Notes: generated by a model not told the origin, from the letters alone. DNA of 64,000 nt from Candidatus Babeliales bacterium (GCA_963722075.1 CAVRJM010000001.1:256001-320000), one strand, 5' to 3'. Counted from the first letter of the stretch, positions 1,828 through 55,845 are shown. Numbers and translations: made by a program.

Positions 1828-2331
1828 ATGAATAAACTATATATTTTAATAAGTTTATTATTACCCATTTCCGTGGCGAGCTTAGCAATGGAGGCTCCAG
1901 AAAAAGAAAAAGAAACAGAAAAAATAAGAACTAGTCGAACAGTAAGGCTTTCGGCAGAAGAAGCACAAAAATTATATTGGGATACCATTGCTGTCGGTGG
2001 AGTGACCGGAAAGCAATTGCCTTATGAAGAATATCGGGCAAATTTAATGGCAGTGATTCCATTAATGGGCTTTACGCAGAGTCGATTCAGTGATCCATTA
2101 GCAGATGCGGTTCATATGAGAGATACTGAATTTGTAAAATTTTTATTAGAGCATGGTGCTGACCCCGATTTTAGGGGAATGAACAGTTTAAGCGCTCATG
2201 ATTATTTAGATCCTGGTTGTGCAGGTAAAATCCGTCGTGCCAAAAATCCGTATCCAGGTTCAGTTGAAGAAATACAAGCATTGCTTAATAAATATTCGGC
2301 ACAAATAAAATGTACTAAATATCGTCAGTAG
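1828..2331 (+). CDS. Secreted single-ankyrin-repeat protein (paralogue 1 of 3)
   Basis: GGAGG RBS; signal peptide SLA|MEAP; ankyrin motif PLADAV..RDTEFVKFLLEHGADP. Confidence 0.85.
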   Translation: MNKLYILISLLLPISVASLAMEAPEKEKETEKIRTSRTVRLSAEEAQKLYWDTIAVGGVTGKQLPYEEYRANLMAVIPLMGFTQSRFSDPLADAVHMRDTEFVKFLLEHGADPDFRGMNSLSAHDYLDPGCAGKIRRAKNPYPGSVEEIQALLNKYSAQIKCTKYRQ

Positions 2332-2520
2332 AATAATATTCATTAATAGTTATTTAAAGCACTGCATTCTTACTTAAACTGAATTGCTTTTTTTTATTTT
2401 TCTTCTCTTGGTCAGTGGCGTTATCATAGAAAATAATTGAAAAACAGCTACTATTGATAAATACGAAGCTGTTATTGTATACTTATTAACAAATGGGTCT
2501 AATTAGAAAAGGGAGGTTCT

Positions 2521-2994
2521 ATGAAAAAATTACTAATTATCTTATGTTCGTTATTTTTTATTTCTCTTAGTTTGGCAATGAAATGTCCGGTAGGGGAAGG
2601 AATTAGAGAGCTATTAGAACTCTCAAAACAAGAAGCCGAAACTATTTATTGGGATACGGTATTTACTCATTTACCGTATGAAGAATATCGTGCAAATTTA
2701 ATGAAAACTATCCCACTAATTGATTTTATTCGCCCACATTATAAAAGACGTGTATTAGGTTATGGCTATCCTTTATTAATAGCAGTATGGATGAGAGATA
2801 CTGAATTAGTAAGACTTTTATTAGAACATGGCGCAGATCCTCTTTTTAGAGATTTTAGCGACTTGAATGCATATGATCTTCTTGATTATAAAAGCGCTGG
2901 TGTTGATGCACCAGAAAATCCGTACCCAGGGACGTCTGAAGAAATAATAGCATTACTTGATTCTTATTCAAAAAGAAAAAAGAGCTCAATTTAA
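2521..2994 (+). CDS. Secreted single-ankyrin-repeat protein (paralogue 2 of 3)
   Basis: GGAGG RBS; SLA|MKCP; PLLIAVWMRDTELVRLLLEHGADP; shares LPYEEYRANLM and NPYPG motifs. Confidence 0.85.
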   Translation: MKKLLIILCSLFFISLSLAMKCPVGEGIRELLELSKQEAETIYWDTVFTHLPYEEYRANLMKTIPLIDFIRPHYKRRVLGYGYPLLIAVWMRDTELVRLLLEHGADPLFRDFSDLNAYDLLDYKSAGVDAPENPYPGTSEEIIALLDSYSKRKKSSI

Positions 2995-3385: not shown

Positions 3386-3892
3386 ATGAAAAAATCATTT
3401 ATTTTAATTTGTTTATTATCTATTGCTTCTGTTTGTTTTGCAATGGAAGCTCCAGAAAAGGAAAAAGAAACAGAAAAAATAAGAACTAAGCCAACAGTAA
3501 GGCTTTCCAGTAAAGAGGCAGAAAGATTATATTGGGCTACTGTAGCTCCTAGTGGAAGGCCCGGACAATCATTGCCTTATGAAAAATATAGAGCAAATTT
3601 AATGGCTGCGATTCCATTTATAGAATATACGCAGAGTTCATTGAGGGATCCATTAGCAGAAGCGGTATGGATGCGAGATACCGAATTTGTGAAGTTTTTA
3701 TTAGAGCATGGTGCAGATCCTAATTTTAGGACAATGACTACTTTAAGCGCGTATGATTATTTAAATTATGGAAACGCGTGTGGGGCTGCTATTCCCGCTC
3801 CTCAAAATCCGTATCCAGGTTCGGTTGAAGAGATACAATCATTGCTTAATAAATATTCAGCACAAATAGAACGTACTAAATTTTCTCAATAG
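3386..3892 (+). CDS. Secreted single-ankyrin-repeat protein (paralogue 3 of 3)
   Basis: CFA|MEAPEKEKETEKIRT has the same mature start as paralogue 1; ankyrin motif present. Confidence 0.85.
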   Translation: MKKSFILICLLSIASVCFAMEAPEKEKETEKIRTKPTVRLSSKEAERLYWATVAPSGRPGQSLPYEKYRANLMAAIPFIEYTQSSLRDPLAEAVWMRDTEFVKFLLEHGADPNFRTMTTLSAYDYLNYGNACGAAIPAPQNPYPGSVEEIQSLLNKYSAQIERTKFSQ

Positions 3893-4098: not shown

Positions 4099-5454
4099 GT
4101 GAAACTGTTATATATAAGTTTATTATCATTAGCATTCTTACCATGTGCTGCAATGAACCAATCTTCTTCTCATGATGGTATTTTCTATTTAGTTGAAGCA
4201 TCGGATGGCCAATTGGTAGAACTACCTGAATCAGTAATAAGAAGATTAAAAGTACTCAATGATTGTTTTAAAGATACTGCCGAAGATTATCTACACAATG
4301 CGTATGCTGGTATTAAAGAAAAAGTTACGGGTAAAGCTGATAAAAATATTTTGTTTTTTAGTTTAAAAGATCGAAGCATTCCCCAAGATATTCCCTTAGA
4401 TAAAGATTGGGACATACCCGTAGATAGCACATTATTGCAAGATTTGAGCGATTGTTTAAGAGGCGTTAAAAAGGTTAAACAATTGGATCCAAAAAAACTT
4501 AATGAGCTTTTTGAAGCAGCTGATTGTTTGGGAGCGCCACGAGCATTCTTAAGAAAATTAACCTTATATGCGCGTAAGTGCTTACCAAAAGATGAGCAGC
4601 ATCGATTAATTTGCTGTGGCCATTATTTAAATTCGCTTAATACCTTTATTGATAATGGGTATTTTACCAAAGACAATGAACAAAATTACCTATCAATACA
4701 AAAAGATCAGAATAATAATGATATTATTACATTACAATTATCGGGTTTAGAGCTTGATAATTTACAGGGTATTGATAAAGTTGCCCGCATTGTTGGCACT
4801 GGAGTTCATAAAATTTGTTTAGAAACAAATAAATTAGTAAAAATTAATTTAAGCAAATTTTGGGAATTATTTCCTCATTTGAATGAAATTAGTTTGGCGC
4901 ATAATAAAATTACAAAAGCCTGTTTATCCATTCCCAATCAATCTTATTCAATGCCAGTTGGTGCGATAATAAATTTATCCGATAATCGACTAAAAAAAAT
5001 TAAGGGAAAATTATCTGAAGCAGCAATTTTAGATATTCAAAAGAATACGATAAGTCCCGAGCTTAAAAATTGTTTAGAATTAATTCAAGAGCCCACATTT
5101 TATCAAAATAATCATTATTTTATTAAAGCATTAAAGAGTAATTATTTTTTAAGTAATATGAAAAAAGGTACAGAAATAGGCCTGATGGGCGTAGGTATGC
5201 TTCCGCTGAGTGTTTCTTTGATCTTATATTATAAAAAAGTTCAAAAATTACCGTCAGAAACTATGAATTTAGAATATGCACAAATTTTTTTGAAACAATT
5301 AAAAGATGTCGTTACAGACCCATTGACATATAAAACAGCTCTTAATTATTTTAGTGGGATGTGTTTATGGAATGTAAGTGTTAATCTTATTTGTGATAGG
5401 GACTTTTATAAGCAGCATTATGGTTTTATTTTACCACAAATCATTACTGATTAA
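4099..5454 (+). CDS. Secreted Skp1/BTB-like plus leucine-rich-repeat protein with hydrophobic C-terminal segment
   Basis: GGAGG then GTG at 4099; CAA|MNQ; LVEASDGQLVELP and LNELFEAADCLG resemble Skp1/POZ; LRRs ICLETNKL, ISLAHNKI, INLSDNRL. Confidence 0.7.
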   Translation: MKLLYISLLSLAFLPCAAMNQSSSHDGIFYLVEASDGQLVELPESVIRRLKVLNDCFKDTAEDYLHNAYAGIKEKVTGKADKNILFFSLKDRSIPQDIPLDKDWDIPVDSTLLQDLSDCLRGVKKVKQLDPKKLNELFEAADCLGAPRAFLRKLTLYARKCLPKDEQHRLICCGHYLNSLNTFIDNGYFTKDNEQNYLSIQKDQNNNDIITLQLSGLELDNLQGIDKVARIVGTGVHKICLETNKLVKINLSKFWELFPHLNEISLAHNKITKACLSIPNQSYSMPVGAIINLSDNRLKKIKGKLSEAAILDIQKNTISPELKNCLELIQEPTFYQNNHYFIKALKSNYFLSNMKKGTEIGLMGVGMLPLSVSLILYYKKVQKLPSETMNLEYAQIFLKQLKDVVTDPLTYKTALNYFSGMCLWNVSVNLICDRDFYKQHYGFILPQIITD

Positions 5455-5757: not shown

Positions 5758-8406
5758 ATGAAACACAAATTAAAAAATAACCCCTTTGTACGCGGCCCTA
5801 AGAATCTTATTTTTGCGCTTATTTTTTTTGTAATTTCATTAGCATTGCTAACGAAATTAACCGATTATACCCGCCATGTTAAAAGTATTGCGTATTCTAC
5901 CTTCTTAAAGAATGTGGAACAGGGAACGGTAAAATCAGTCCATATTAGTGGGCAAGATGTGTATGGTATTTTACAAGACGGTACGCGCTTTGAAACGGTA
6001 GTTGCTGAAAGCCCAAGCAATTTAGAACTATTGCGCCAACATAATGTAGAATTTTCAGTAGCACCAACCACTGGCCAATTTAATATATGGCATCTGCTGT
6101 TGTTATTCTCTTTCTTGCTTGTACCCTTAATAGTTTGGTACTTTTTCAAACAATCACGCGGTGGTTCTGGCGGAGGAACTACGCTGTTTAGTATGGGTAA
6201 AAGTAAAGCGAAGATGTTTATGCCATCTACTATTAAAATAAATTTTAAGGCAGTTGCTGGTGCTAAAGATGCCAAAGAAGAGCTTAAAGACGTTGTTGAT
6301 TTTTTGAAAAATCCTGAAAAATACCGTCGATTAGGTGCAAAGATACCGCGCGGTGTTTTACTGGTGGGTGAACCGGGTAATGGTAAAACGCTCCTTGCTA
6401 AAGCGGTAGCAGGGGAAGCAAATTGCCCATTCTTTAGTATTACGGGTTCAGATTTTATTGAAGTTTTTGTTGGTGTGGGCGCAGCGCGTGTTCGCGATCT
6501 GTTTGCGCAAGCGCGTAAAAATGCACCGAGTATTATTTTTATTGATGAAATTGATGCCATTGGCCGTCAACGTGGCAGTGGTTTTGGCGGCGGCCATGAT
6601 GAGCGTGAGCAGACCCTTAATCAACTTCTGACTGAAATGGACGGCTTTGATACGGCAGGTTCTTCGGTGGTGGTGTTAGCTGCTACCAATATGCCAGACG
6701 TGCTTGATAAAGCATTATTGCGTCCAGGGCGTTTTGATCGCCGTGTGGATGTACCGTTTCCTGATGCTGAAAGCCGTGAACAAATTTTACGCATACATGC
6801 GCAACAAATTAAGCTTGATCCTGAAGCTGATCTTAAAAAGATTGCTGAAGTTACTGCCGGGTATAGTGGCGCTGATTTAGCAAATCTTATCAATAAAGCG
6901 GCTATTAATGCCTCTAAAAAGAACCAAGATAAGGTCATGATGGAAGATATCGAAGATGCGCATAAAACAATGCTGCAATCATATAATGGACCAGCATCAA
7001 GTGCTACACAAATGACTAAAGGCAATAGTAGTGCTAAAATGTTTATGCCATCGCAAGTTAAATGTAACTTTGAACACGTAGCGGGCATGCAAGAAGCAAA
7101 AGAAGAGTTGCGGGATGTTGTTGATTTCTTAAAAAATCCTGAAAAATTCAGACGCTTAGGGGCAAAAATTACTAAAGGGGTGCTGTTAATTGGTGAACCA
7201 GGTAATGGTAAAACCTTACTTGCTAAAGCCGTTGCTGGCGAGGCAAATTGCCCATTTTTTAACGTAAGTGCTTCTGAATTTGTAGAAATGTATGTTGGGG
7301 TGGGTGCTTCGCGGGTGCGTGATCTATTTAATCAGGCGCGTAAGCATAATCCAAGCATTATTTTTATTGATGAAATTGATGCGGTTGGCAGACATCGTGG
7401 ATCTGGCATTAATGGCGGCAATGATGAACGTAATCAGACGCTCAATCAATTGCTAACTGAAATGGATGGTTTTGATACATCGTTAAGTTCGGTGATTGTA
7501 ATAGCGGCAACAAACCGACCTGATTCCCTTGATCCAGCATTAATGCGGGCAGGGCGCTTTGATAGAAAGGTAGAAGTTCCGTACCCAGATCTTGCGAGCC
7601 GTGAAAAAATTCTTAATTTACATGCTCAAAAAATTATTATGGATCCAGTAATTGATTTACATAAGGTTGCCCGTGGCACGCCCGGGTTTTCTGGTGCAGA
7701 TTTGGCTCATTTAGTAAATGAATCGGCATTACTAGCTTCGCGAAATGGTGAAAAAACCATGGTTTCAATTCAAGATTTTGAAGAAGCGCGTGATAAAATT
7801 ATGATTGGAAAAGAGTTAAAAACAATCGTGTTATCTGAACAAGAGCGTAAAATAACGGCATTCCATGAATCAGGACATGCGTTAGTGCGCTTATTATTAC
7901 CAGAATATAGCGATCCATTACATAAGGTAACTATCGTACCGCGAGGACGTGCGTTAGGCGTTACCCATTCATTACCAGAACGAGAAAAATATACCCAAAC
8001 CAAGGAAGAGATGCTTACGGTGATTATGGTTTGCTTAGGTGGCCGTGTTGCTGAAGAAATGGTCTTTAATGTACTGGGGACCGGTGCGTATAATGATTTT
8101 GAAAAAGCTACTGAAGTTGCACGCCGCATGGTATGTTCTTATGGTATGTCTTCAGAATTAGGCCCGGTGGTTTATAAGCAACAAGAGGGCGAATATACCT
8201 ACTCTCAAAAAACAGCAGAACGCATTGATGCAGAGGTGCAAAAGCTGTTAGAGCAATCATATCAAAAGGTTAAAGAACTCTTGGGCCAACACAGGGATAA
8301 GCTTGAAAAGCTGGCCAATCATCTCTTTAATAAAGAGACGCTCTTTGCTCATGAAATCTATGAGTTGCTAGGAATTGAAGCGCGCCAAGACTTTAAACTT
8401 TCATAA
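5758..8406 (+). CDS. ftsH: ATP-dependent zinc metalloprotease FtsH with duplicated AAA+ module
   Basis: Two TM helices, two GEPGNGKT/IIFIDEID/SRH modules, HESGH zinc motif and M41 protease domain. Confidence 0.95.
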   Translation: MKHKLKNNPFVRGPKNLIFALIFFVISLALLTKLTDYTRHVKSIAYSTFLKNVEQGTVKSVHISGQDVYGILQDGTRFETVVAESPSNLELLRQHNVEFSVAPTTGQFNIWHLLLLFSFLLVPLIVWYFFKQSRGGSGGGTTLFSMGKSKAKMFMPSTIKINFKAVAGAKDAKEELKDVVDFLKNPEKYRRLGAKIPRGVLLVGEPGNGKTLLAKAVAGEANCPFFSITGSDFIEVFVGVGAARVRDLFAQARKNAPSIIFIDEIDAIGRQRGSGFGGGHDEREQTLNQLLTEMDGFDTAGSSVVVLAATNMPDVLDKALLRPGRFDRRVDVPFPDAESREQILRIHAQQIKLDPEADLKKIAEVTAGYSGADLANLINKAAINASKKNQDKVMMEDIEDAHKTMLQSYNGPASSATQMTKGNSSAKMFMPSQVKCNFEHVAGMQEAKEELRDVVDFLKNPEKFRRLGAKITKGVLLIGEPGNGKTLLAKAVAGEANCPFFNVSASEFVEMYVGVGASRVRDLFNQARKHNPSIIFIDEIDAVGRHRGSGINGGNDERNQTLNQLLTEMDGFDTSLSSVIVIAATNRPDSLDPALMRAGRFDRKVEVPYPDLASREKILNLHAQKIIMDPVIDLHKVARGTPGFSGADLAHLVNESALLASRNGEKTMVSIQDFEEARDKIMIGKELKTIVLSEQERKITAFHESGHALVRLLLPEYSDPLHKVTIVPRGRALGVTHSLPEREKYTQTKEEMLTVIMVCLGGRVAEEMVFNVLGTGAYNDFEKATEVARRMVCSYGMSSELGPVVYKQQEGEYTYSQKTAERIDAEVQKLLEQSYQKVKELLGQHRDKLEKLANHLFNKETLFAHEIYELLGIEARQDFKLS

Positions 8407-8691: not shown

Positions 8692-8709
8692 AAATAAGGT
8701 TATTATATA

Positions 8710-9016: not shown

Positions 9017-9734
9017 ATTTTGTTTGATTATTTTTTAGTTCCAATAATCTCTTATAATTTGTTACTAGTTTTCTAACGTTATCTATTTGTTTTTCTAGCT
9101 CTTCAAATTTTTTCCAGATAGTATTAGTTAGTTCATTTCTCGTACTATCTTTATCTTCTAAGTCTTCTATTCGTTCAGCTTGATCATTATTGATTTTTTC
9201 ATATTTAATTAAATAATCTTCTAAAGCATTTGTCTTTTCAATAAGCATTGCAATCTGGCTTGGACGAGTTGCTTTTTGTGGTTTTTCTATATCGCTTTTA
9301 TCGATGCCTATTATTAATTCTATATTAGTAACGCGCCGTGTTAATTGCTTTAATAAATTTTGCGTTTCACTCATTTGCGAGAAGGATGCTCGTGGTGATT
9401 CTGTTAGCTTATTAGGTTGCGATGAAGCAATGTGATCTAATAAGCTTTTATAGTGCTGTCCATTATTATAATACGCATAATAGATGCCCCATCCAAAAGC
9501 GCATAAAATAGGATATTTTATTAAACTGGGAATGGTATGCCAGCAATTCTTTACTAATTCATAGGCATTTAATGTTTCAGTTTTATTAAAATAAGAATAG
9601 ATTCCAAGTCCCATAATACCACCACTTAATAATGAATAAGGATGCGATATGGTATTTTTTAATTTTTGAAAAGGCTTAGTGGAACCTATATGCAGTAATA
9701 AGCACAGTGAGAAAATGATTTGTTTATTGATCAT
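9015..9734 (-). CDS. Hypothetical membrane protein with C-terminal coiled coil
   Basis: Signal-like N-terminus, two short hydrophobic segments, long heptad-rich C-terminus; overlaps the upstream gene stop (ATGA). Confidence 0.65.
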   Translation of the reverse strand: MINKQIIFSLCLLLHIGSTKPFQKLKNTISHPYSLLSGGIMGLGIYSYFNKTETLNAYELVKNCWHTIPSLIKYPILCAFGWGIYYAYYNNGQHYKSLLDHIASSQPNKLTESPRASFSQMSETQNLLKQLTRRVTNIELIIGIDKSDIEKPQKATRPSQIAMLIEKTNALEDYLIKYEKINNDQAERIEDLEDKDSTRNELTNTIWKKFEELEKQIDNVRKLVTNYKRLLELKNNQTK

Positions 9735-10339
9735 TGTTGTGATGATTCGCTGTTCATAATAAAGGAAAGACTCATTCTATCCTGATTTTGATGCTCAGGA
9801 TAGTTTTGTTTATATAGTTGATAATATGTATAAAGTGATTGCTTGATATCAGGAGTTAATGGTGGTTGAGATGGCGTTTTTATTATAGTTAATATGGTAT
9901 TAAAAAGTGAACGAACGGCAAATGGATCCTGAGCATCTAAATGCAGGCTGATTAATTTTAGATAGGTATTAATCTGTAAATTATAAAAATGCGTTTGGTA
10001 TATTTCTCTATAGTGTGCTATTTCATGTGGAGTGGAAAATTCATACGGTATTACTTTGAAAGTAAGTAATCGGTTCAAGTGTTCAATTTCTTCTAATAAC
10101 AAATCCTTAATTCCAGTGAGTTTATTATTGGTTGGATGCAAATTATAACTATGACAGATTTGTAGATATTCCCTTTCAAAATCTCCTATTTTTTGCATAT
10201 GAGGCTTAGCCTGCTTTTTATAATACACTCTTCCGCTATTAGAACCAAATTTATCTTCTTGGTTATCCTCTTGATCAGGATTCATAGCTTGCATCGATAT
10301 CATTGCCGTAATGATTAAAAAAAAAGTAGCATATTTCAT
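9731..10339 (-). CDS. Secreted hypothetical protein
   Basis: GGGG RBS; signal peptide MQA|MNPD. Confidence 0.7.
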   Translation of the reverse strand: MKYATFFLIITAMISMQAMNPDQEDNQEDKFGSNSGRVYYKKQAKPHMQKIGDFEREYLQICHSYNLHPTNNKLTGIKDLLLEEIEHLNRLLTFKVIPYEFSTPHEIAHYREIYQTHFYNLQINTYLKLISLHLDAQDPFAVRSLFNTILTIIKTPSQPPLTPDIKQSLYTYYQLYKQNYPEHQNQDRMSLSFIMNSESSQQ

Positions 10340-13559: not shown

Positions 13560-13820
13560 ATGAAAAAGTTATTTGCGATGACATTTTTAGCGACGTTTTC
13601 TTTGAGTGCTATGAATAAAAGTGAGGAAAAACAAGTATTAAATGTTGCAGTAGTTGCTGCTCAGAGTAATATTCGACCGGCACAGCATTCATTTCTTCCC
13701 GTTCGGCCACCATTTCAAAAAGCACCTCTTGATGGTGTTAATCCGCGTGAAGATCAATCACATTTGTTTTTATCTAAAAAAACGAAGCAAGAGAATAATC
13801 AAAAAAACACTGATTCGTAA
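13560..13820 (+). CDS. Small secreted hypothetical protein
   Basis: AAGGGA RBS; LSA|MNKS. Confidence 0.65.
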   Translation: MKKLFAMTFLATFSLSAMNKSEEKQVLNVAVVAAQSNIRPAQHSFLPVRPPFQKAPLDGVNPREDQSHLFLSKKTKQENNQKNTDS

Positions 13821-15195: not shown

Positions 15196-16461
15196 ATGAA
15201 TAGCAATAAATTAAGATGGCTTTTTTTATTATTTTTATCATATACCAGTATTTATACCATTGATAATCCGCATTTTTATCGTGCTAATTTCTTCTGGGGA
15301 GAGCCTCGTTTTGAGGAACCATGGCTCAGCACGTTTGAAATAACCTTTGGCGGGGGCAGTACTAAAAAAGCACGAAATAAAAAAGGCGAAAAAACAGATT
15401 TATTAAATATTTATGGGTTACAAAATATGCAAGCGCTTGCGCAAGGGGTTCCAAACCTTGATAGCAGTAATCCATTGGAGGCCATTCTTATTGATTTGGC
15501 GGCTCTTCCAGCACGCGATAATTTTGGCAAAGTTCGTTTTAAAGGGGAATTTGATATAGAGGAATTGGTATTAAATGGGTTTCAAAATATAAAAAACGGA
15601 TTTTTTTTGCAATGTTACTTACCCATTAGAAGTTTACATATAAATAACATTCATTTTATTGATGAATCTCCTGCTGACGATATTTTTCCTAATCGAAATA
15701 CCCCACAATGGCTTAGCTTTTTGAGTAATGTTACTACTATTTTATCGCAATTTAACCGTTCTATTGATAAAGTGAGTGAGACCGGAATTGGGGATCTTTC
15801 GCTTTTAATTGGATGGGCTCGTAATTATCAAGAGACCTGTTATATAGATTATTGTGATGTTGATGCCAAAATAGGAATATTATTTCCGACCGCAAAAAAA
15901 CAAAGTATTAGAAATCCCTTTAGCATTCCTTTAGGATATAATGGCTTTTATGGATTACCATTTAAATTTGATTGTTCTATTGGTTATTGGGAATGGCTAA
16001 CGGCAGGGTTTCATATCGGTGCACTTTTTTTATTTGAGCGTGAAAAGTTGCTTCCACTTAAAACGGCTCCTGACCAAAATGGTTTCATATTTTTAGCCCA
16101 AGGAAAAGCAAAAGTTGATCCTGGTACCTATTGGGAGTTATCCGGGTACGTTAAGGCGGATCATTTTTTTAAGGGACTTTCGTTGCTCATTGGCTACTGC
16201 TATACGCAAAAAGATGCTGATTGTATTGTACCATTAGATATGGAAGTTTTTAATCCAATTATTGTTAATACTGATCAGCGATTTAAATCATGGAATATGC
16301 AGGTGATCCACTGGATTATTGAATATGATTTTTCAAAGAAGCCTACTGATCTAAAGCCGCGTGTAGGTATTTTTTCTAACGTCTTGGTGGGAGGAAAACG
16401 AGTATTTAATACCAGTATTATTGGGCCATTTTTGGGGTTTGATGTTTCTTGGTGTTTTTAA
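15196..16461 (+). CDS. Putative outer-membrane beta-barrel protein
   Basis: Signal peptide, alternating amphipathic strands, C-terminal aromatic beta-signal-like GFDVSWCF. Confidence 0.55.
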   Translation: MNSNKLRWLFLLFLSYTSIYTIDNPHFYRANFFWGEPRFEEPWLSTFEITFGGGSTKKARNKKGEKTDLLNIYGLQNMQALAQGVPNLDSSNPLEAILIDLAALPARDNFGKVRFKGEFDIEELVLNGFQNIKNGFFLQCYLPIRSLHINNIHFIDESPADDIFPNRNTPQWLSFLSNVTTILSQFNRSIDKVSETGIGDLSLLIGWARNYQETCYIDYCDVDAKIGILFPTAKKQSIRNPFSIPLGYNGFYGLPFKFDCSIGYWEWLTAGFHIGALFLFEREKLLPLKTAPDQNGFIFLAQGKAKVDPGTYWELSGYVKADHFFKGLSLLIGYCYTQKDADCIVPLDMEVFNPIIVNTDQRFKSWNMQVIHWIIEYDFSKKPTDLKPRVGIFSNVLVGGKRVFNTSIIGPFLGFDVSWCF

Positions 16462-42448: not shown

Positions 42449-42787
42449 ATGAAAAAATTAATAGTAACAATTGTTCTTATGCCGGCATTATTGAGTGCGA
42501 TGCAAAAACTGCAAACGCCGCCTGCGAGCCCTAAAAAGAATGTACCTTTAGTAACGATTGGCGAATATCATAATCTTGTTCGAGCTTTTAAAAATGCGCA
42601 GACAATAGATGATATTAATGATGGGATCAATAGACTGAATGCATTAAAAATGGACGCTACAAATCAGGGACGGCAAAAGATCGCATATGATTGTGGAAGA
42701 ATGATTGGAAGATTGCAAAGTAGATCAAACAATGATTTGTTTGTTGATCAATTAAAAATGATATCTCTTCAGGAAAAGAAAAAATAG
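42449..42787 (+). CDS. Small secreted hypothetical protein
   Basis: AAGGA RBS; LSA|MQKL. Confidence 0.7.
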   Translation: MKKLIVTIVLMPALLSAMQKLQTPPASPKKNVPLVTIGEYHNLVRAFKNAQTIDDINDGINRLNALKMDATNQGRQKIAYDCGRMIGRLQSRSNNDLFVDQLKMISLQEKKK

Positions 42788-48119: not shown

Positions 48120-50105
48120 ATGAAAATTAAACTATTATTAGGTATCGCCTTGATGACATTGTCATTGAAGGGGATGCAAGAATCGGATAGAAGTCTTTAT
48201 TTCTATTTTGGATCAAATCCATCAGTTAAAACTGACGATATAAAAACTATCTATGAAAGTATGGCTGCTGTTTATAATCCAGCTAATTATGAGCAAAGTC
48301 CCATAAAGGCGTCAATGCATAAAGAACAAGCAGCAGAATACTTCAGTAAAATGAGCGAAGCATATGAAATCTTATCAGATGTAACAGCTCGCGCCATGTA
48401 TGATGTTTTTGGATTGGAGCGTGCGAAAGCATTTTTAATCAGAAGAGAAGGTTTATTAGCTGGTATTAAAGAAGGAACTGAAGCGTTAAAAGGTCTTATT
48501 ACTCATTGTCATATCCCACAATACTATGAACAATTAAGGACATATCATGAAAAATTATGCACGTTTTGGATTACTGAAATGGCGGGTAGCGATATTGCAA
48601 CTGAGCTCAAACGGGCTGTAGTTAATGCAACATATATGGTTATTCAATTTTTTCATACCAATTATGCACAAAATAAAAATGGTGCTGAAATAATTAAATA
48701 TATCGATCTAGCATTAAATTATGCGAATGATCTTCCTTTAAATGATGCACAGGATCTTACTATTGCTGAAGAGCTTATTCAATTAAGAAATCAGTATCTC
48801 GCTATAGAGCGTGGATCTGGAAGCAATGTAAGTGCTGCGTCTTCTTCATTACCATCAGTAATGGTTGTAAAAAGACCTTTAATAGATAAAAAAAATAAAA
48901 ACAATGCAGTAAAGCGTCTCAAAGGGGCTGATAAATCGCCTCAAAGAAATCCACCAGCTTCTAAAGAAAATGAAGAATTTGAAAGACAAGTTGAGCAGGT
49001 AGGGGAATATCTAAAGGGAAAATCTTTTTTTACTACTACTGGCACTGATGGTCTTACGGTAGAAGAATTTTATACCGAAATTAGTAAGAGATTAGTATTT
49101 ATAAATGATTTACCAAAGAGTATTTCATTAGATAATAAAAAAAAATGTGAGGATTTATTTTTAGACCTTATTAAACGAGCGTTAGATCTGTTGCGATATC
49201 AGTATCGTGAATTTAGATCAGATGCCCATAATCAAGAGGATGCTTATAAATTAGGCATAACATTATGTGAATTTGGTGCAAGGATGGTAAATCATGCAGA
49301 CTTACAATGTTATACTGATTTTTTTAAGGTACGAGAAAAAAACAAAAACGAGCGGGAAGCGGCGATAGAGAAATTTGATAAAGACCTAAAAGCTAATCAA
49401 AAATCTAGCCGAGAATTAACTAGATATATGGGATTAGAGTATTTAAATGATTTATATATTGATGCTATTTCTCCACAGTACCAGAATAAAGCATTAAAAC
49501 ATTTTTATAAGGTCATTAATCGACTATTAAAAGAAAAAAAACCGAAATGGGTAGCCAAAAGGATTTTCCAAAGAGCTCTCATGTTCAAATGGACCGATTG
49601 TTCAAAACATATAGCTGAAAGCGGTATTTTTAGAAAATTTAATAAAATTATTGCTCTTGCTGATAAATTATTTGTTTCAGATTCTGATTTGTTGCGAGAT
49701 TTTTGCAAAGGAATGAAAGAAGAATTAGATGCAGATATACCAGAATCTATTCGGAATGTTAAACAACGTATTATTAATTCTTCCAAAAAAATAAAAAAAT
49801 GGATGACAGATCCTCGGGGTCGCGTCTGCATAAAAACTGCGCAAGGCATACACTCCATTAGTGCTTCTTTAAGTATTAATAGAGATGAAAATAATGAAGA
49901 ACAAGTTTCAATTTTTATAGAATTAATTATTACCTGCATTAATAAGTTAAATAATCTATACCAACAAAATGATGCAATAGAATTGATTGATCATCTATTA
50001 ACAAATTCCATCTTTGCATCTGGCATAGTTATTAGACAATCGATTATAGACACATTTATTGATTTGAAAAAACAAATTATGGAGGAAAAGAAAAATGAAA
50101 ATTAA
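48120..50105 (+). CDS. Secreted protein with degenerate J-domain (NPA for HPD) and putative NLS (paralogue 1 of 4)
   Basis: LKG|MQES; IK..Y....VYNPANY...AEYFSKMSEAYEILSD..R.MYD; KRPLIDKK..VKRLK. Confidence 0.75.
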   Translation: MKIKLLLGIALMTLSLKGMQESDRSLYFYFGSNPSVKTDDIKTIYESMAAVYNPANYEQSPIKASMHKEQAAEYFSKMSEAYEILSDVTARAMYDVFGLERAKAFLIRREGLLAGIKEGTEALKGLITHCHIPQYYEQLRTYHEKLCTFWITEMAGSDIATELKRAVVNATYMVIQFFHTNYAQNKNGAEIIKYIDLALNYANDLPLNDAQDLTIAEELIQLRNQYLAIERGSGSNVSAASSSLPSVMVVKRPLIDKKNKNNAVKRLKGADKSPQRNPPASKENEEFERQVEQVGEYLKGKSFFTTTGTDGLTVEEFYTEISKRLVFINDLPKSISLDNKKKCEDLFLDLIKRALDLLRYQYREFRSDAHNQEDAYKLGITLCEFGARMVNHADLQCYTDFFKVREKNKNEREAAIEKFDKDLKANQKSSRELTRYMGLEYLNDLYIDAISPQYQNKALKHFYKVINRLLKEKKPKWVAKRIFQRALMFKWTDCSKHIAESGIFRKFNKIIALADKLFVSDSDLLRDFCKGMKEELDADIPESIRNVKQRIINSSKKIKKWMTDPRGRVCIKTAQGIHSISASLSINRDENNEEQVSIFIELIITCINKLNNLYQQNDAIELIDHLLTNSIFASGIVIRQSIIDTFIDLKKQIMEEKKNEN

Positions 50106-52110
50106 ACTATTATTATCAATTCCGTTTATAGTTCTTTCTTTAAAGGGGATGCAACCATCGGATATAAGTCTTTATTTCTACTTTGGATCAAATCCAACAA
50201 TAAGCACTGACGATATAAAAACTATCTATGAAACTATGGCTCCTGTTTATAATCCGGCTAATTATGAGCAAAGTCCGGTAAAAGCTTTAATGCATAAAGA
50301 ACAAGCAGCAGAATACTTCAGTAAAATGAGCGAAGCATACGAAATTTTAAGAGATCAAACCCTGCGTCCAATGTACGATATTTTTGGGTTAAGTCGGGTG
50401 AGGGATTTTTTAAATAGAAAAAAAGATTTATTAGATGGTATAAAAAAAGGAACTGAAGCGTTAAATGGGTTTATTACTTATTGTCATATGCCACAATATC
50501 GTGAACAAATAAAACCGTATCATGAAAAATTATGCGTATATTGGATCCAACAATTAAATGATTGGTTAAATACTGATGTTGTACCCGAGCTACAGCGGGC
50601 CGTTGTCACTACAACATATAACGTTATTCAATTTCTTCACAGCAATAATCAGGTGCAAAATAGTGCTGAAATAATTAAATATATTGATCTAGCATTAAAT
50701 TATGTGAGAGAACTTCTTCCTTTAAATGATGCGCAAGATTCTATTATAGCCCAAGAGCTTACCCAATTAAGAAATCAGTATCAATCTACCCAAAGTTCGG
50801 GATCTGGTTCTGGGTGCCAAGAAAATATAGAAGCGGGAACAATTGGAACAAAAAGACCTTTTGTGTCAATAGATGACAAACATAGAGTAAATAATGCAGT
50901 AAAGCGACTAAGGGAGTCTTCTAACGAATTACGCAACGAAAGGGAAGCAGCTTATAGAAGAGCAAAGGAAATTGAAAAAGAAGTTGAGCAGATCCGAAAA
51001 TATGTGGAAGAAAAATCTTATTTTACTACAGATGGAACCAATGGGCTTACCGTAGAAGAATTTTACACTGAAATTACTAAGCGGTTAACCTTTATGAGAG
51101 ACTTTCCAGAAGGTATGAGTCAGTATATTAGATCAAAATGCGATAAGTTATTTTCAGGGCTTATTATTCAAGTCGTTGATTTGTTGAGAGATCAGTTTCA
51201 TTTATTTAAATCTGATGCACAAAATCAAGATAATGCTTATACATTGGGTGCGGCATTATACCATTTTGGTAAAGATCAGGTAACATATGATTCTTATGAA
51301 TTTCACGATTTAAGACGTGCTCTTTATTCATTTAATTATAACTACTCGCAACAAGCACGAAGATCGCTGGGAGAGCAAATAGAGAAACTTGATAAGGCTT
51401 TAAAAGATAAAGAAAAATCTGCCCTAGAATTAGCTAAGATACTTATAAATAGGTGTAAGTATGTTCATACCCTTGCTCCTCACTATCAAAATAAAGCATT
51501 AAAACAATTTTATAAGATTGCTAAACGAATGCTCGATGAAAATGAATCAGAGTATTCTGTATTGGTAGCAAAACAACTGATGTATATGGCAGCAGCTAAA
51601 TTGAAATGGGTTGATTGTTCACAAAATATAACGTTGAGTGGTATTTATAGGAAATTTAAAAAAATTAATTCTCTTTTTGAAAAATCATTTATTCCTGACA
51701 TGCGAGAAATGCGTGAATTTTGTAATGCAATGAAAGAGAAATTAAATACAGATGATGCAGAATCTATAACTACGGTTAAACAAACTATTATTAGCTCTTC
51801 GGTTAAATTTAAAAAACTAACAAATATTTTTAGTAGTAATCTAAAAATTCAACGAGGTTTACATACCCTTCGCGGTTATATGGGGCCATCTGAAAGGGCT
51901 CAATCGCAAACACCTTTTACTACTTTTATCGCATTGCTTTCTAATTGTGTTCAAAAGTTAATTAAGTCTGATCAACAAAATGACGCTTTGGAATTGATTG
52001 AGAACATATTAAAATACCCAGTATTACAATACTCAATTAGCCAACCGACTAAAGAACAATTCCTTGATTTAAAAAAACAAATTATGGGGGAAAAGAAAAA
52101 TGAAAATTAA
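50095..52110 (+). CDS. Secreted protein with degenerate J-domain and putative NLS (paralogue 2 of 4)
   Basis: Overlaps the previous gene by 11 nt; similar throughout; QNKALKQFYK. Confidence 0.75.
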   Translation: MKIKLLLSIPFIVLSLKGMQPSDISLYFYFGSNPTISTDDIKTIYETMAPVYNPANYEQSPVKALMHKEQAAEYFSKMSEAYEILRDQTLRPMYDIFGLSRVRDFLNRKKDLLDGIKKGTEALNGFITYCHMPQYREQIKPYHEKLCVYWIQQLNDWLNTDVVPELQRAVVTTTYNVIQFLHSNNQVQNSAEIIKYIDLALNYVRELLPLNDAQDSIIAQELTQLRNQYQSTQSSGSGSGCQENIEAGTIGTKRPFVSIDDKHRVNNAVKRLRESSNELRNEREAAYRRAKEIEKEVEQIRKYVEEKSYFTTDGTNGLTVEEFYTEITKRLTFMRDFPEGMSQYIRSKCDKLFSGLIIQVVDLLRDQFHLFKSDAQNQDNAYTLGAALYHFGKDQVTYDSYEFHDLRRALYSFNYNYSQQARRSLGEQIEKLDKALKDKEKSALELAKILINRCKYVHTLAPHYQNKALKQFYKIAKRMLDENESEYSVLVAKQLMYMAAAKLKWVDCSQNITLSGIYRKFKKINSLFEKSFIPDMREMREFCNAMKEKLNTDDAESITTVKQTIISSSVKFKKLTNIFSSNLKIQRGLHTLRGYMGPSERAQSQTPFTTFIALLSNCVQKLIKSDQQNDALELIENILKYPVLQYSISQPTKEQFLDLKKQIMGEKKNEN

Positions 52111-54160
52111 ACTATTATTAGTAATTCCACTTATAATTCTTTCTTTAAAGGGGATGCAAGAATCTGATATAAGTCTATATTCCTATTTAAATGTTCAAAA
52201 TAATGCAACTAGAGAAGAAATAAAAAAAGCATATAAAGATTGTTCTCTTATTTATCATCCAGATAAATATGAACAAAGCTCTATACGCAATCGTATGTCA
52301 AAGCAAGAAGCTGAAGAGCATTTCAAAAAAATTAAAGAAGTATATGAAATTTTAAGTAATAATAAAACACGAAAGATGTATGATGATTTTGGTTTAAAAT
52401 ACGTCCGAAGTTATATTGCTCAGGAAGAAAAGAACCGGCGTGCTGCTGAAGAACCCATGGCCCAGCAACAATCTACCCAAACAGCGTTCACCGCAAAAAG
52501 GTCATCACAAACTCCTAAACAAGACGAAGCCAAGTCAAAATCGGAAGAAGATATAAAGAATGTTCTTGAAGATCTTGAGGCGGGAACTAAGATCATTAAT
52601 AACTTAATTACTGAATTTTATACCTATAGTTTCAGGTTATCAGAATTAGAAGGATATTATAACGAAAAAATTCAAGAATGTATTTCATTATTAAAAATGC
52701 CCAAATACTCAATTATTAGAGACGATATTAAGAAAACAATAATAGATGTATCACAATTATTCATTGGTGTATTACTATTAAAAATGAAAGAAGATCAAAA
52801 TTTGGCTCGTAATGTACTACTCCATGCAGAAGAAATTATGCAGTCTTTATACTTAGGAGTAAATGATTACAGGTTTTTTGCAGATGCTGTAACGCGCGCC
52901 CGAGAAAAATTGGCACCCAGATCGCAACCATATACTCAACAACATACTGCTTTTCAAACAAAACGACCGTCACCACAGGGTCCTAAACAAGCTGATCCTA
53001 AGCGCGTAAAAACAACTGAACCTACTGTTGATTCGAAGTTTAAACAAAGAATCGAATTTATAATTGAAGAACATAAACGTTTTAGCGATTATTTAGCGCA
53101 AGCAAGTTTTTTGAAAGAAAACGTTTTAACCTATCAAGAATTTTCCAATATGGTACAGAAAAAAATTGATTTTATTAAACCATATATAACAGGAATTCCA
53201 GAAAATTTAATTTTAGGATATAAGTTGCGTAATAGCATGTTGAGACATATTTTCCAGGCCATTTTATTATTAAAAGAAAGATACACTGAATTTAAAGAAG
53301 TTGATTGGATCATGGCCTGTGGATGGGGTAAAAATTTATGTAGTTCAGCGTTTTTTATTTATTCAATTTCAGATGATGAAGACAAAGCGGTTGTTAAGGA
53401 GCTTTCTTTGTTAAATTCTTATTTTGATAAAGAGATATTGCATTCAAAAATTAGGAATATAGATTATCACCTTCGTTCAAAAAGCTCGAATATAATTGAA
53501 GATGCGCGATTTGTACTTCACGATTATGAAAACAAAATAATTTCAGCAGATCCTATAATGCAAGATAAAGCCGCAAAGCATTTTTATAAATTTGCCAAGA
53601 AGTTATTAAAGCAATCAGAACGAGCTCTAGCAGTTGAGTTGTTAAATAGGGCACTATACTTGAGATGGTCAAATATAGATGGTATTTACCAAACAATTGA
53701 GAAAATAAAAAATCTACTTACAAAGCTAAATTATTATTCGATTATTGTAACGAATTTTTGTCAAAGTAATAGAAAAAAATTGGAAGAAAATTCGCCAGAT
53801 GCAGCGCTTGCTGTTCAACAAAATATTATTAATAATAATGATCGATTGAAAAATTCGCTTTCATGCTGTGTTATTCATCGATTTCAGAATTTCATATATA
53901 GTACTTTTACAACCACAAACCCTGATTTACTGAACCTTTATTATGATTGTATTCAGTTGTTAATTAATTCTCATTTTTTAAATGAAGCTTTAGAGCTCAT
54001 TAATATCGTAATTTGTCAATACGATCTGGATAAAGAAACACAGGATCGCTTTAAAGAACAATTTGATTTAATTAATCAAATGCAAGAATTAGATAAACAA
54101 CTTGAAAGTCAGCCACCAATGGATTTCAATGATATTAAAGATTTTTTAAGTAAAGAATAA
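52100..54160 (+). CDS. Secreted J-domain protein with intact HPD and putative NLS (paralogue 3 of 4)
   Basis: LYSYLNV..NATREEIKKAYK...YHPDK...F..IKEVYEILS..R.MYD; KRPSP..PKRVK; QDKAAKHFYK. Confidence 0.85.
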   Translation: MKIKLLLVIPLIILSLKGMQESDISLYSYLNVQNNATREEIKKAYKDCSLIYHPDKYEQSSIRNRMSKQEAEEHFKKIKEVYEILSNNKTRKMYDDFGLKYVRSYIAQEEKNRRAAEEPMAQQQSTQTAFTAKRSSQTPKQDEAKSKSEEDIKNVLEDLEAGTKIINNLITEFYTYSFRLSELEGYYNEKIQECISLLKMPKYSIIRDDIKKTIIDVSQLFIGVLLLKMKEDQNLARNVLLHAEEIMQSLYLGVNDYRFFADAVTRAREKLAPRSQPYTQQHTAFQTKRPSPQGPKQADPKRVKTTEPTVDSKFKQRIEFIIEEHKRFSDYLAQASFLKENVLTYQEFSNMVQKKIDFIKPYITGIPENLILGYKLRNSMLRHIFQAILLLKERYTEFKEVDWIMACGWGKNLCSSAFFIYSISDDEDKAVVKELSLLNSYFDKEILHSKIRNIDYHLRSKSSNIIEDARFVLHDYENKIISADPIMQDKAAKHFYKFAKKLLKQSERALAVELLNRALYLRWSNIDGIYQTIEKIKNLLTKLNYYSIIVTNFCQSNRKKLEENSPDAALAVQQNIINNNDRLKNSLSCCVIHRFQNFIYSTFTTTNPDLLNLYYDCIQLLINSHFLNEALELINIVICQYDLDKETQDRFKEQFDLINQMQELDKQLESQPPMDFNDIKDFLSKE

Positions 54161-54189
54161 AAAGATTTTCTGATAATGGAGAAACATAG

Positions 54190-55845
54190 ATGCGAAGGTT
54201 ATTTATTCTCGTATTACTGCACATTACCTGTTATGCCATGGAAGATCCTTTTCATAATTATACATTAGAAGAGCAATCCAAAAAAGAATTAATTATTACC
54301 ATGGAAATGTATGCTAATAATTTAAAGCATTATATTTCCCTTTATTATGATAATCAGCTCAGTTGTACACAACTTGAAGATTATTATAAGTCGCTACACG
54401 AATGGTTATATAAACAAGGTGAGTTATGCAGAGGTACGCAAATTGCGCCTATTTGTGCAGAGGAAATAATCAAAAATGGTTTTAGCATCATTAAGCTATT
54501 TGCATCACATAAAGAAGCGGAAATGCTTGAAAAAGCGGTTTACTATATTGATTCTCTAGTAAAATATATACGCCAAGGAGATTTGCGATTACATGAATTG
54601 GATCAATTAAAAAACAAGCTCAGTCAAAAATTAAAGGCATCAGTTCAAAAAGGATTGTTAAAAAGAAAAGCTACGCAAAGTCCTTGCTTATCTGTTAAAA
54701 AAAATAAAGTTGATGATGTAAATTTTTTGAAGGAAAAAAATGCTGCATTAAAGAATTACTTAAAAAGAACCTCTTATAATTTGAATGAATTTTGTAGTAC
54801 GGTTACCATATCATTAGATACTATTATCGATTTATTTGATGATCTTCCTGAGCAAAAAGAAAAAGAAGAAAAGGGTTTAAGAGCACAAATACTCGCTAGT
54901 ATTTGTAGAGCAATTTCTTTATTTGAATATCAATTAGAAAAATTTACTCATTATAATAGTAAAACTGCATTTCAATGCATTATTTATATATGTCAACGTG
55001 GATTACCATTTAACTCGATATGGACGCAACTGCAAGAAACGCAAGAAATTTATAAATATAAATTACAATGTATTGAAATAAAAGAACAACAAAGAAAAAA
55101 AGTAGAAGATCTAATAGATGCAATGGGCCAACAATTTCCAATCAGCAAAACGAGCCCGGATCTTAAGAATATTGCAGATGTTTTAATGGCGGAGTGCGGA
55201 AATAATGATGATCTTTCCTTGGATTATCAACAAAAAGCTCTAAAGCATTTTTATAAAGTAACAAAAAAGTTATTCCAACAAAATGATATTGAACGATTTA
55301 CAACGCTGATTAATTGTGTTCTTTCTCAGGCATGGATGGAGGATCTTCATATCATTGATCGTTTTACAAAGATTTGTGATTTAAAAAATAAAAATGACGA
55401 AGCATATCAATGGGTACTAAAATTCAATGCAATTATAAAAGAACATTTTAAGAATGCGCAGGATATTGAATCTTTAAAAAATGCTTTAAACACATTACTT
55501 AATTATCAATCAGATGCTTTTCAGGTAATCAGTCGAATTTCTACCATGATTATCGTTCCTGAAGTGCTTAATGGAAGTGTTACCATAGGCATTAAAGAGG
55601 ATGATCAGCAAAAAAATGATGCAAAATCAATGATTCTTAATCTCTATTATGATGGGGTACAAAAATTAATGGAAGCAGGCTTGTTTGAAGAGGCCGGAAT
55701 TCTTATTAATAGTATAGCAGCTCAGGGTGATGAACTAAAAATAAATGAATTAAGAAACCAACTTGGTGATTGTATTATGGCATCATATGAAGCTACGCTT
55801 TATTTAAATTTACCTGATGATGATGCCGATACTATTATTTTGTAA
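54190..55845 (+). CDS. Secreted paralogue 4 of 4, lacking the J-domain
   Basis: GGAG RBS; CYA|MEDP; KRKATQSPCLSVKKNK; QQKALKHFYK; LNLYYD..Q.L. Confidence 0.7.
   Translation: MRRLFILVLLHITCYAMEDPFHNYTLEEQSKKELIITMEMYANNLKHYISLYYDNQLSCTQLEDYYKSLHEWLYKQGELCRGTQIAPICAEEIIKNGFSIIKLFASHKEAEMLEKAVYYIDSLVKYIRQGDLRLHELDQLKNKLSQKLKASVQKGLLKRKATQSPCLSVKKNKVDDVNFLKEKNAALKNYLKRTSYNLNEFCSTVTISLDTIIDLFDDLPEQKEKEEKGLRAQILASICRAISLFEYQLEKFTHYNSKTAFQCIIYICQRGLPFNSIWTQLQETQEIYKYKLQCIEIKEQQRKKVEDLIDAMGQQFPISKTSPDLKNIADVLMAECGNNDDLSLDYQQKALKHFYKVTKKLFQQNDIERFTTLINCVLSQAWMEDLHIIDRFTKICDLKNKNDEAYQWVLKFNAIIKEHFKNAQDIESLKNALNTLLNYQSDAFQVISRISTMIIVPEVLNGSVTIGIKEDDQQKNDAKSMILNLYYDGVQKLMEAGLFEEAGILINSIAAQGDELKINELRNQLGDCIMASYEATLYLNLPDDDADTIIL

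Follow-up and report, generated by a model that had tools for sequence, protein, structure and literature searches.

Introduction

Signal peptides of the classical Sec pathway begin with a positively charged n-region, continue with a hydrophobic core and end in a c-region some six residues long, in which positions -3 and -1 are small or neutral; in total, about 21 residues precede the cut of signal peptidase I. Methionine is uncommon at position +1 of the typical substrates of this enzyme. The present work deals with a large group of proteins in which such a signal peptide is directly followed by a Met residue (the Met junction), as observed in a window of 64,000 nucleotides, by which we mean the whole stretch of DNA that was analysed (contig C1, positions 256001-320000), from the genome G000 of a Candidatus Babeliales bacterium, a protist-parasite bacterium belonging to the Dependentiae (TM6, Babeliales). 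The signal peptides of this group share all the classical traits mentioned above and differ from the classical ones in three respects: Met occupies position +1 in about 40% of the substrates, versus 0 of 23 in a sample from Escherichia coli and 6% in G016, another genome of the Dependentiae; position -3 is mostly occupied by Leu or Ile rather than Ala; and Pro occurs at position -1 in 16 of 212 signals.

Among the described systems, the Q-rule of the Bacteroidetes offers an instructive comparison. According to this rule, the substrates of signal peptidase I exhibit a Gln residue at position +1, which is cyclised to pyroglutamate (PMC5837995, PMC10653852), and the rule holds in all compartments, with at least 48% in each (PMC5837995). 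Both systems rely on a lineage-specific +1 residue, concern a considerable part of the exported proteins and are absent from related lineages. They differ in the residue itself, Gln as opposed to a non-cyclising Met; in their extent, all compartments as opposed to one class of exported proteins; in their reader, a glutaminyl cyclase for Gln as opposed to no reader found for Met; and in the seeming origin of the Met from an initiator codon. With Met at position +1 and a class-specific distribution, the junction described here stands as an analogue of the Q-rule and not as an example of it.

No published rule of a Met following the signal peptides of the Dependentiae was found in the literature searched, the passages on signal peptides in the reports on Chromulinavorax (PMC6561590) and Babela (PMC4378268) being silent in this respect. 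The elements newly brought here are the comparison with Met-poor lineages, the alignment of the Met with initiator residues, the rejection of a dedicated peptidase, and the common occurrence of a small residue followed by Asp or Glu in the Met-less signals. The Met junction is a property of one part of the Dependentiae, not of the whole phylum, and is best regarded as a variant, confined to one clade, of the context in which signal peptidase I cuts; its origin probably lies in retained initiator codons.

Frequency and Distribution of the Met Junction

The initial annotation of the window listed 17 open reading frames (ORFs) with a Sec-like signal directly followed by Met, and all 17 sites are present as described, except that the listed positions are those of the ORF start codons, the Met being located 16-24 codons downstream. 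Each of the 17 displays, in this order, an n-region with Lys or Arg, a hydrophobic core, a small residue (Ala, Gly or Ser, replaced by Pro in the ORFs starting at 25227 and 33431) and the Met. Sixteen of them start with ATG and one with GTG (4099), usually with a GGAG-like Shine-Dalgarno motif located 6-10 nt upstream. The residue that follows the Met is Glu, Asn or Gln in 13 of the 17 ORFs, Lys, Arg, Ile or Tyr in the other four, and a small residue in none, exactly as had been claimed. The count of about 12 unrelated groups also stands: eight ORFs belong to three BLAST families, consisting of three small ankyrin proteins, two WD40-related proteins and three J-domain proteins, and the other nine have no paralogue among the 17.

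The 1.47-Mb genome (35% G+C, four contigs) was searched with a home-made signal-peptide filter, which requires a net positive charge followed by 10 or more consecutive uncharged residues, inside which a 9-residue window reaches a mean hydropathy of at least 2.2. Our own ORF caller delivered 1533 ORFs. The filter retained 641 of them (42%) as signal-peptide-like, in agreement with the 44% reported for Chromulinavorax, another member of the Dependentiae (PMC6561590). After removal of 120 ORFs with further hydrophobic segments, 521 remained. ORFs were called Met-type when Ala, Gly, Ser, Cys, Thr or Pro followed by Met occurs 1-10 residues past the hydrophobic core; 212 of the 521, about four in ten, belong to this type. 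Eight lipobox ORFs passing the filter were classed apart and the 301 other signal-peptide ORFs served as the Met-less comparison set. The 212 ORFs are distributed over at least 170 BLAST groups, so that the rule is not owed to one expanded family. The frequency of Met along the ORFs peaks at residues 19-22, and the last residue before the first charged one is Met in 118 of the 641 ORFs, versus a Met background of 1.8%, which disposes of the objection, anticipated in the initial annotation, that the residue might be no more frequent there than elsewhere.

Inside the window, the filter recognizes as Met-type 17 of the 34 signal-peptide-like ORFs devoid of further membrane segments, a proportion to be compared with the 6% rate of G016 taken as a negative control (binomial p ~1e-12). 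These 17 are not entirely those listed initially: the filter misses the ORF at 4099, assigned to the membrane class because of a later hydrophobic stretch, and that at 13560, which lies under the hydropathy cut-off, and adds two weaker sites at 16458-16892(-) and 58699-59556(+).

The same script was applied to five control samples. In G003, a genome of the same family (1.2 Mb), 185 of 429 ORFs are Met-type (43%). G020, which belongs to a different family within the order (400 kb), has 51 of 159 (32%), with Asp rather than Glu after the Met. In the samples from G051 and G016, which represent two additional families of the Dependentiae, and from E. coli, the proportion falls to 28 of 151 (19%) in G051 (400 kb), where most of these ORFs belong to a single paralogous family and where Met as the last residue before the first charged one is at background; to 7 of 121 (6%) in G016 (400 kb, 31% G+C); and to 0 of 23 in E. 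coli K-12 (200 kb). The paralogous family of G051 (G051:C1:1-400000), with signals ending in S|MYA(A/M)QES, represents a local Met-Tyr junction. A filter-light statistic, the enrichment in Met at positions +3 to +9 past the core, gives 3.2x for G000, 3.5x for G003, 2.8x for G020 and 1.4x for G051, and the value of G016 lies under 1.2x, the lowest enrichment listed. From these control genomes it follows that the rule is no artefact of AT-richness or of the filter. G016 does possess many orphan signal-peptide ORFs, and a Pfam scan of 80 out of 114 revealed one ankyrin and one C2H2 protein; the signal junctions of its orphan, ankyrin and C2H2 proteins, e.g., VFA|NE and LYA|SD, contain no Met.

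Start Codons Upstream of the Met

An obvious alternative, already named by the initial annotation as fatal to its own proposal, is that translation really begins, always or in part, at the Met, the upstream part corresponding to untranslated AT-rich sequence, or the gene producing an exported and a cytoplasmic isoform. Shine-Dalgarno-like motifs, counted at a score of at least 3.5, occur at the annotated start of 118 of the 212 Met-type ORFs and before the Met of only 4 of the 212, a rate below the 5.4% found for control internal ATGs. The annotated starts are ATG in 193 of the 212 ORFs, and n-regions rich in Lys and Asn come next. In addition, the residue after the Met is Glu in 39% and Lys in 7% of the cases, versus 13% Lys, 10% Ile, 9% Ala and 4% Glu for the second residue at the real starts of signal-less ORFs. 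The signal-like upstream part is kept in frame in 31 pairs of homologues, by a rough count, as the ungapped extrapolation of homologue alignments misplaces the Met at indels. The public gene calls for five genes of the window all adopt the signal-including form and none the Met-start form, no RNA run was found to cover the region, and G016, although more AT-rich, yields only 6% by the same script.

In favor of a start at the Met, about half of the G000 genes start without a strong Shine-Dalgarno motif, so that initiation without it is conceivable. Moreover, a near-identical 149-residue relative of the ankyrin ORF at 3386-3892, encoded on a contig of 1992 bp, was called from the Met (MEAPEK...), the record resulting either from a truncated contig or from a gene caller having picked the second ATG, and a toxin-like ORF on contig C4 resembles such an artefact, its real start probably being the Met. 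For nearly all Met-type ORFs, the Met is not the real start, and the alternative appears very improbable.

Build of the Signal Peptides and Position of the Cut

The context of the junction conforms to the consensus [L/I]-x-[A/S/G]|M-[E/D/Q/N], and the position of the Met peaks 4-8 residues past the hydrophobic core. Among the 212 Met-type signals, position -1 is occupied by Ala (87), Ser (47), Gly (46), Pro (16), Thr (10) or Cys (6), i.e., by Ala, Ser or Gly in 180 of them, and position -3 predominantly by Leu (62), Ile (30), Ser (27), Ala (18) or Val (13), which together account for 150. The n-region contains a median of two Lys or Arg residues (330 Lys and 58 Arg overall), and the hydropathy of the core is 2.9. 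After the Met, the most frequent residues are Glu (82), Gln (31), Asn (22), Asp (18) and Lys (14), with a small residue in 18 ORFs. Past this point, no further shared N-terminal motif was detected, the early mature part being mildly enriched in Glu, Pro, Gln, Lys and Ser.

A small residue followed by Asp or Glu ends 60 of the 301 Met-less signals of G000, which indicates that an acidic residue in the cleavage region is general in this genome. Compared with these 60, the Met-type signals have the same median length (21) and the same median extent of the c-region (6), and do not differ in hydropathy or in the charge of the n-region, a common geometry that places the Met where the mature protein begins in the Met-less ones. 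Judging from these features, the Met looks like one extra residue added ahead of the usual acidic mature start. The c-regions of the two sets differ in composition, with Leu or Ile instead of Ala at position -3 and more Gly at position -1 in the Met-type signals.

The n-region, the core and the -3/-1 pattern fit real Sec-type signals with the Met at the expected P1' position of signal peptidase I, as the initial annotation had assumed, and the -3/-1 pattern and the geometry suggest that signal peptidase I most likely cuts between the small residue and the Met. The required machinery is present, with a SecY gene (E 2e-103) and two Peptidase_S26 genes in which the catalytic boxes GSME(T/S)T, KR..G.PGD and GDNR..S.DSR are intact. 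Other types of signals were discarded: a lipoprotein signal handled by signal peptidase II, position +1 being Met and not Cys; a type IV prepilin leader, the hydrophobic segment preceding the Met and the sequence after it being polar and acidic; and a Tat signal, RR-x-hydrophobic occurring in only 2 of the 212. A nucleotide motif or cassette at the junction was also rejected, the codon usage at positions -1 and +2 being that of the genome and no extra base conservation being found. A crude -3/-1 cleavage-site predictor gave noisy +1 residues on the Met-less signals, with Leu as the commonest, and was not relied on.

Proteins Carrying the Met

The nature of the exported proteins was addressed by a Pfam scan of a 460-kb sample comprising 75 Met-type ORFs and 87 other signal-peptide ORFs. 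The former include ten ankyrin (Ank), three DnaJ, two WD40 and four C2H2 proteins, one Metallophos protein, one LigD phosphoesterase, two weak matches and 52 ORFs without any family; no recognisable envelope protein occurs among them in Pfam. The 87 others contain a PBP, an M23 peptidase, a rotamase, a solute-binding protein, TonB, FKBP and thioredoxins but no ankyrin protein, along with cytoplasmic false positives (Rossmann-fold N-termini) and one internal DnaJ domain. The opposition drawn in the initial annotation between eukaryote-like and envelope housekeeping proteins is borne out, as Ank, DnaJ, WD40 or C2H2 domains occur in 19 of the 75 Met-type ORFs versus 1 of the 87 others (Fisher p 3e-6).

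As for the families themselves, the ankyrin, DnaJ and WD40 proteins named initially were retrieved among the 17 window ORFs, in which no LRR protein (0 of 17, Pfam E<=0.01) and no family beyond Ank, DnaJ and WD40-type propeller matches was found. The FKBP-type lipoprotein encoded at 39519-40031(-) (FKBP_C E 2e-35) exhibits a lipobox-like IQSGC and, as had been stated, no Met junction. The claim that ankyrin proteins all carry the Met does not extend to the whole genome. Genome-wide, 69 Ank_2 matches correspond to 40 ORFs (two matches remaining unmapped), of which 20 by the filter and 25 by eye possess the Met junction. Signals have been reported in 78% of the ankyrin proteins of Chromulinavorax (PMC6561590) and in 79 of 126 of those of Babela, whose signals are called 'somewhat atypical' (PMC4378268).

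Met-type proteins are lineage-specific: reciprocal best hits in G003 exist for 25 of the 212, as compared with 114 of the 301 ORFs with another type of signal and 482 of the 892 ORFs devoid of any signal.

Some of the exported proteins deserve a separate mention. Clustered C2H2 zinc-finger proteins of eukaryotic type (G000:C1:220290-225340(-) and 216260-217102(-)) all display a Met junction (RA|MEDPNPP, QP|MEHDQ). A PEBP/YbhB-like protein (G000:C1:554618-555142(-)) and a LigD 3'-phosphoesterase (455340-456053(-)) both bear a signal with a Met junction, and a DOT1-like methyltransferase (434868-435530(-)) and a Macro-domain protein (422612-423451(+)) bear a signal with no Met junction. All four are normally cytoplasmic or nuclear-type proteins, which are here signal-bearing. 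In many relatives at the level of the order, the conserved 882-residue ORF located in the window at 5758-8406(+) is matched as two separate halves (residues ~1-400 and ~430-880); shorter paralogues of this ORF, encoded at C1:517474-521508, bear signals of the Met type.

Methionine aminopeptidase leaves the Met in place before bulky residues, Met followed by Asp, Glu, Asn or Gln constitutes the substrate class of NatB, and Met is a stabilising residue in the Arg/N-degron pathway. On these grounds, the initial annotation proposed that the exposed N-terminus imitates a native cytosolic N-terminus of the eukaryotic host, untrimmed, of the NatB class and free of any N-degron. Met followed by Asp, Glu, Asn or Gln does occur in 153 of the 212 ORFs, a resemblance in sequence only to the NatB class, and a small residue follows the Met in 18 of the 212 versus about 35% expected from composition. 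The preference of G020 for Asp over Glu would mean that it is a class of residues, and not one particular residue, that is maintained, and the carriers are proteins with eukaryote-like domains. Against such a mimicry stands the frequent small|D/E junction of the Met-less signals, which makes the acidic residue a general feature of the genome. Besides, Ala, Ser, Gly and Thr, the usual +1 residues, are also stabilising according to the Arg/N-degron rule in its classical form, and acetylation by NatB takes place during translation. Two lineages of the Dependentiae dispense with the Met in secretomes that are equally large and likewise comprise ankyrin and zinc-finger proteins with signals, and the delivery of the Met-type proteins to the host cytosol is itself presumed. 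Taken together, these data make a mimicry of host N-termini rather doubtful.

Conservation and Origin of the Met

The conservation of the Met was evaluated on pairs of homologues of which one member is Met-type and the partner unrestricted. The Met is identical in 31 of the 42 best paralogue pairs of at most 50% identity (74%, p 3e-7), whereas the flanking positions are identical in about 33% on average and the -1 and post-Met residues in 52-59%. Among diverged paralogues, no N-terminal position is better conserved than the Met. An illustration is given by four tandem paralogues (C1:791672-800974), in which the signals and early mature parts are unrelated but the junction reads x-A/G|ME in all four. 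In some orthologues the Met has been lost to Ile, Lys, Asn or Gly.

The origin of the Met may be read from three families with known signal-less homologues. A secreted J-domain protein consists of a signal plus MEQEEPTYYDILGV, the Met of which is aligned with the initiator of the cytosolic DnaJ of G000 itself, and in the J-domain proteins of the window the DnaJ profile begins 7-10 residues past the Met. The PEBP-like ORF consists of a signal plus MKLISSVFNDGDRLP, with Met27 aligned with the first residues of 1fjj_A (MKLISNDLRDGDKLP), the chain of E. coli YbhB, and of 3n08_A. In the LigD 3'-phosphoesterase ORF, Met25-Pro26 are aligned with residues 1-2 of 2lj6_A. These alignments suggest that, in the J-domain, PEBP and LigD families, an entire ORF probably received its signal by grafting ahead of the start codon, and that the Met is the old initiator. 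Such a step would be easy to conceive, an upstream in-frame ATG in an AT-rich genome readily giving Lys-rich and then hydrophobic codons. This likely origin of the Met, as a retained initiator, was missed by the initial annotation.

A homologue search with the J-domain protein starting at 52100 gave eight matches including the query and was uninformative as to the conservation of the Met; the other seven all carry DnaJ Pfam domains, six of them with the full DnaJ chaperone set and one named as Buchnera DnaJ. A first scan of the genome contigs with the same protein gave no match.

If the Met is an old initiator, it could also be a functionless one, left over in recently grafted genes and not yet mutated. 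The Met-type ORFs are indeed young or fast-evolving, with a reciprocal best hit in G003 for 12% versus 38% of the other signal-peptide ORFs, the Met is aligned with native starts in the three families just described, and its replacement in some orthologues points in the same direction. A mere leftover fits poorly, however, with a Met kept in 31 of 42 paralogue pairs between flanks that are only about 33% identical, with a post-Met residue reshaped away from that of real starts, and with the lack of any Met excess in G016 and G051, both rich in orphan signal-peptide proteins. A purely neutral relic is accordingly held to be improbable.

Search for a Reader of the Met

A Met recognized as such calls for a reader, and the first candidate is signal peptidase I itself. 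Two copies of this enzyme (G000:C1:326730-327443 and 1297849-1298550 in the present genome) exist in the genomes that follow the rule (G000, G001, G003, G004 and G020), and a single copy in the two Met-poor genomes. The gene was duplicated separately in genus g1, in genus g3 and in G020, with a tandem arrangement in G003 and G004, and these separate, lineage-specific duplications indicate that there is no old Met-specific paralogue. A dedicated paralogue was rejected, the two copies being 68% identical, with all catalytic boxes kept, and arising from separate duplications. The duplications may reflect a very large secretory load.

Two tandem secretin genes located about 5 kb apart occur in all five Dependentiae genomes G000 (C1:1152861-1160265), G003, G020, G016 and G051. 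As they are found in genomes with and without the rule, they do not match it. Neither type I (OEP/TolC) nor type IV (VirB4) families were detected in these five genomes, in which the secretins are the sole recognisable outer-membrane conduit. A shared C-terminal secretion domain was rejected as well, only 20 cross-family pairs, mostly ankyrin by name, being found in 157 proteins; one of these C-terminal pairs links the J-domain protein at 52100 with the ORF at 54190.

The idea behind this search is that of a sorting tag, i.e., of a Met-acidic N-terminus which, once exposed, would be read by a second, clade-specific step that separates host-destined from periplasmic proteins; this step could be an export across the outer membrane, a packaging into vesicles or a processing by an enzyme of its own. 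Several observations speak for it: the Met is found on proteins of the accessory and eukaryote-like kinds but not on the housekeeping proteins of the envelope, no other N-terminal positions are conserved as well as the Met and the two residues on either side of it, the limits of the rule to a clade are those expected for a co-evolved machine, the c-region is unlike that of the Met-less signals, and no TolC or VirB4 system exists in the five genomes. Precedents are the Phe at position +1 in the transit peptides of complex plastids and the PEXEL-derived N-terminus in Plasmodium (PMC3774753, PMC10653839), where the residue exposed by cleavage decides on the onward transport; the likeness holds only if the sorting tag is real, and these systems are eukaryotic and involve other residues and other machinery. 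Conversely, no candidate reader emerged from the nearly redundant signal peptidases or from the secretins, which are indifferent to the rule, no common C-terminal or further N-terminal motif accompanies the Met, and some likely effectors are devoid of it. A sorting tag is seen as rather unlikely.

Proposed Mechanism

The following mechanism is proposed. An ordinary Sec signal of about 21 residues, with a Lys-rich n-region, a hydrophobic core and a c-region of six residues, would direct the export of the protein, and signal peptidase I would cut before the Met to leave a mature protein starting with Met-Glu, Met-Gln, Met-Asn or Met-Asp. A signal-less protein of cytoplasmic type or eukaryote-like would have acquired this signal by extension upstream of its old start codon. 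One clade of the Dependentiae (families f1 and f17) would then keep the Met by purifying selection, as a distinct cleavage context, which would mark a fast-evolving accessory secretome, presumed to be host-directed, and not the envelope housekeeping proteins. As a whole, this combination of Sec signals, a cut before the retained initiator Met and a clade-limited selection is considered probable, though far from assured.

Several points weigh against it. Grafting is seen in the three families whose signal-less homologues are known, the majority of the Met-type proteins being orphans, and grafting alone would have put the Met in G016 and G051 too, so that a clade-specific factor is needed; it also leaves unexplained the shift of the post-Met residue to Glu, Asp, Gln or Asn and the clade-limited retention. 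The Met is identical in 10 of 17 pairs with G003 (59%), which is not significant when taken alone (p 0.07). As regards the cut, E. coli signal peptidase I is not known to accept the Pro that precedes the Met in 16 of the 212 signals. As regards the association with host-directed proteins, effector-like enzymes with a signal but no Met include DOT1, Macro, NADAR and PLA2_B proteins, in addition to a beta-helix protein, and 9 of the 40 ankyrin ORFs have a signal without Met. Finally, the filter is loose, admitting some membrane anchors, lipoproteins and artefacts, of which the toxin-like ORF on C4 is a probable Met-type example, and missing cases that are clear by eye.

Met-Type Genes of the Window

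The window opens with three small ankyrin-like paralogues on the plus strand. The first (1828-2331; Ank E 7e-4) displays the signal MNKLYILISLLLPISVASLA followed by the Met (codon at 1888) and EAPEKEKE, the second (2521-2994) a signal ending in ISLSLA before the Met (2578) and Lys, and the third (3386-3892) a signal ending in ASVCFA before the Met (3443) and Glu; a public gene call of the latter includes the signal. The next ORF (4099-5454(+)), with a GTG start, encodes 451 residues without any Pfam family, and its signal ending in FLPCAA precedes the Met (4153) and Asn.

Several orphans are scattered downstream. Those of the minus strand consist of 202 residues (9731-10339; signal ending in AMISMQA, Met codon 10285-10283, followed by Asn), 188 residues (17058-17624; IINCYG, 17570-17568, Arg) and 195 residues (30482-31069; PTVNQG, 31009-31007, Tyr). 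Those of the plus strand consist of 86 residues (13560-13820; TFSLSA, Met codon 13611, followed by Asn), 133 residues (25227-25628; NMQIYP, 25293, Ile), with an atypical Pro at position -1, and 112 residues (42449-42787; PALLSA, 42500, Gln). A 63-residue 'signal-like' ORF at 27726-27962(-), located between and over the genes for tRNA-Lys (27720-27795) and tRNA-Leu (27978-28064), is almost certainly spurious and illustrates the false positives of the filter.

A WD40/beta-propeller protein of 653 residues (33431-35392(+)), with a signal ending in GYSSIYP, the Met (codon at 33503) and EEEEE, is followed by a truncated paralogue of 139 residues (35478-35897(+)), in which the signal ends in GYSSIYS and precedes the Met (35550) and EEEE. 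A weak ankyrin-like ORF of 274 residues (38617-39441(-); Ank_2 E 0.0018) comprises a signal ending in HMSYSAG, the Met (39378-39376) and Glu.

The distal part of the window (48120-55845(+)) harbors three J-domain paralogues in tandem, with overlaps of 11 nt at 50095-50105 and 52100-52110 and the overlapping start ATGAAAATTAAA. The first (48120-50105; DnaJ 2.7e-8) has the signal MKIKLLLGIALMTLSLKG and the Met codon at 48174, the second (50095-52110) a signal ending in IVLSLKG and the Met codon at 50149, and the third (52100-54160; DnaJ 2.5e-18, with positions 2-63 of the profile at residues 26-95) a signal ending in IILSLKG and the Met codon at 52154; the Met is followed by Gln in all three. 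The ORF that comes next (54190-55845), of 551 residues, with a signal ending in HITCYA, the Met (54238) and Glu, lacks the J domain despite a C-terminal similarity to the three J-domain proteins.

Significance for the Dependentiae

The Dependentiae export about 40% of their proteins without any recognised effector-delivery system. In this respect, the Met mark provides a direct computational list of candidate effectors, amounting to about 14% of the ORFs of the present genome, and a testable handle on sorting or stability. It also constitutes a visible record of the recruitment of cytoplasmic and eukaryote-like proteins into the secretome by means of a signal placed upstream of an intact start. 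For annotation, it is a reminder that gene callers may be misled by an in-frame ATG ahead of a good protein and choose a false start. A bolder proposition, which we put forward as a long shot worth stating, is that the Met-acidic N-terminus is a clade-specific address label for the passage from the periplasm to the host, co-opted from the leftover initiator Met. If this were true, a single residue would define the set of effectors throughout an entire branch of the Dependentiae, and an undescribed second export step would be implied.

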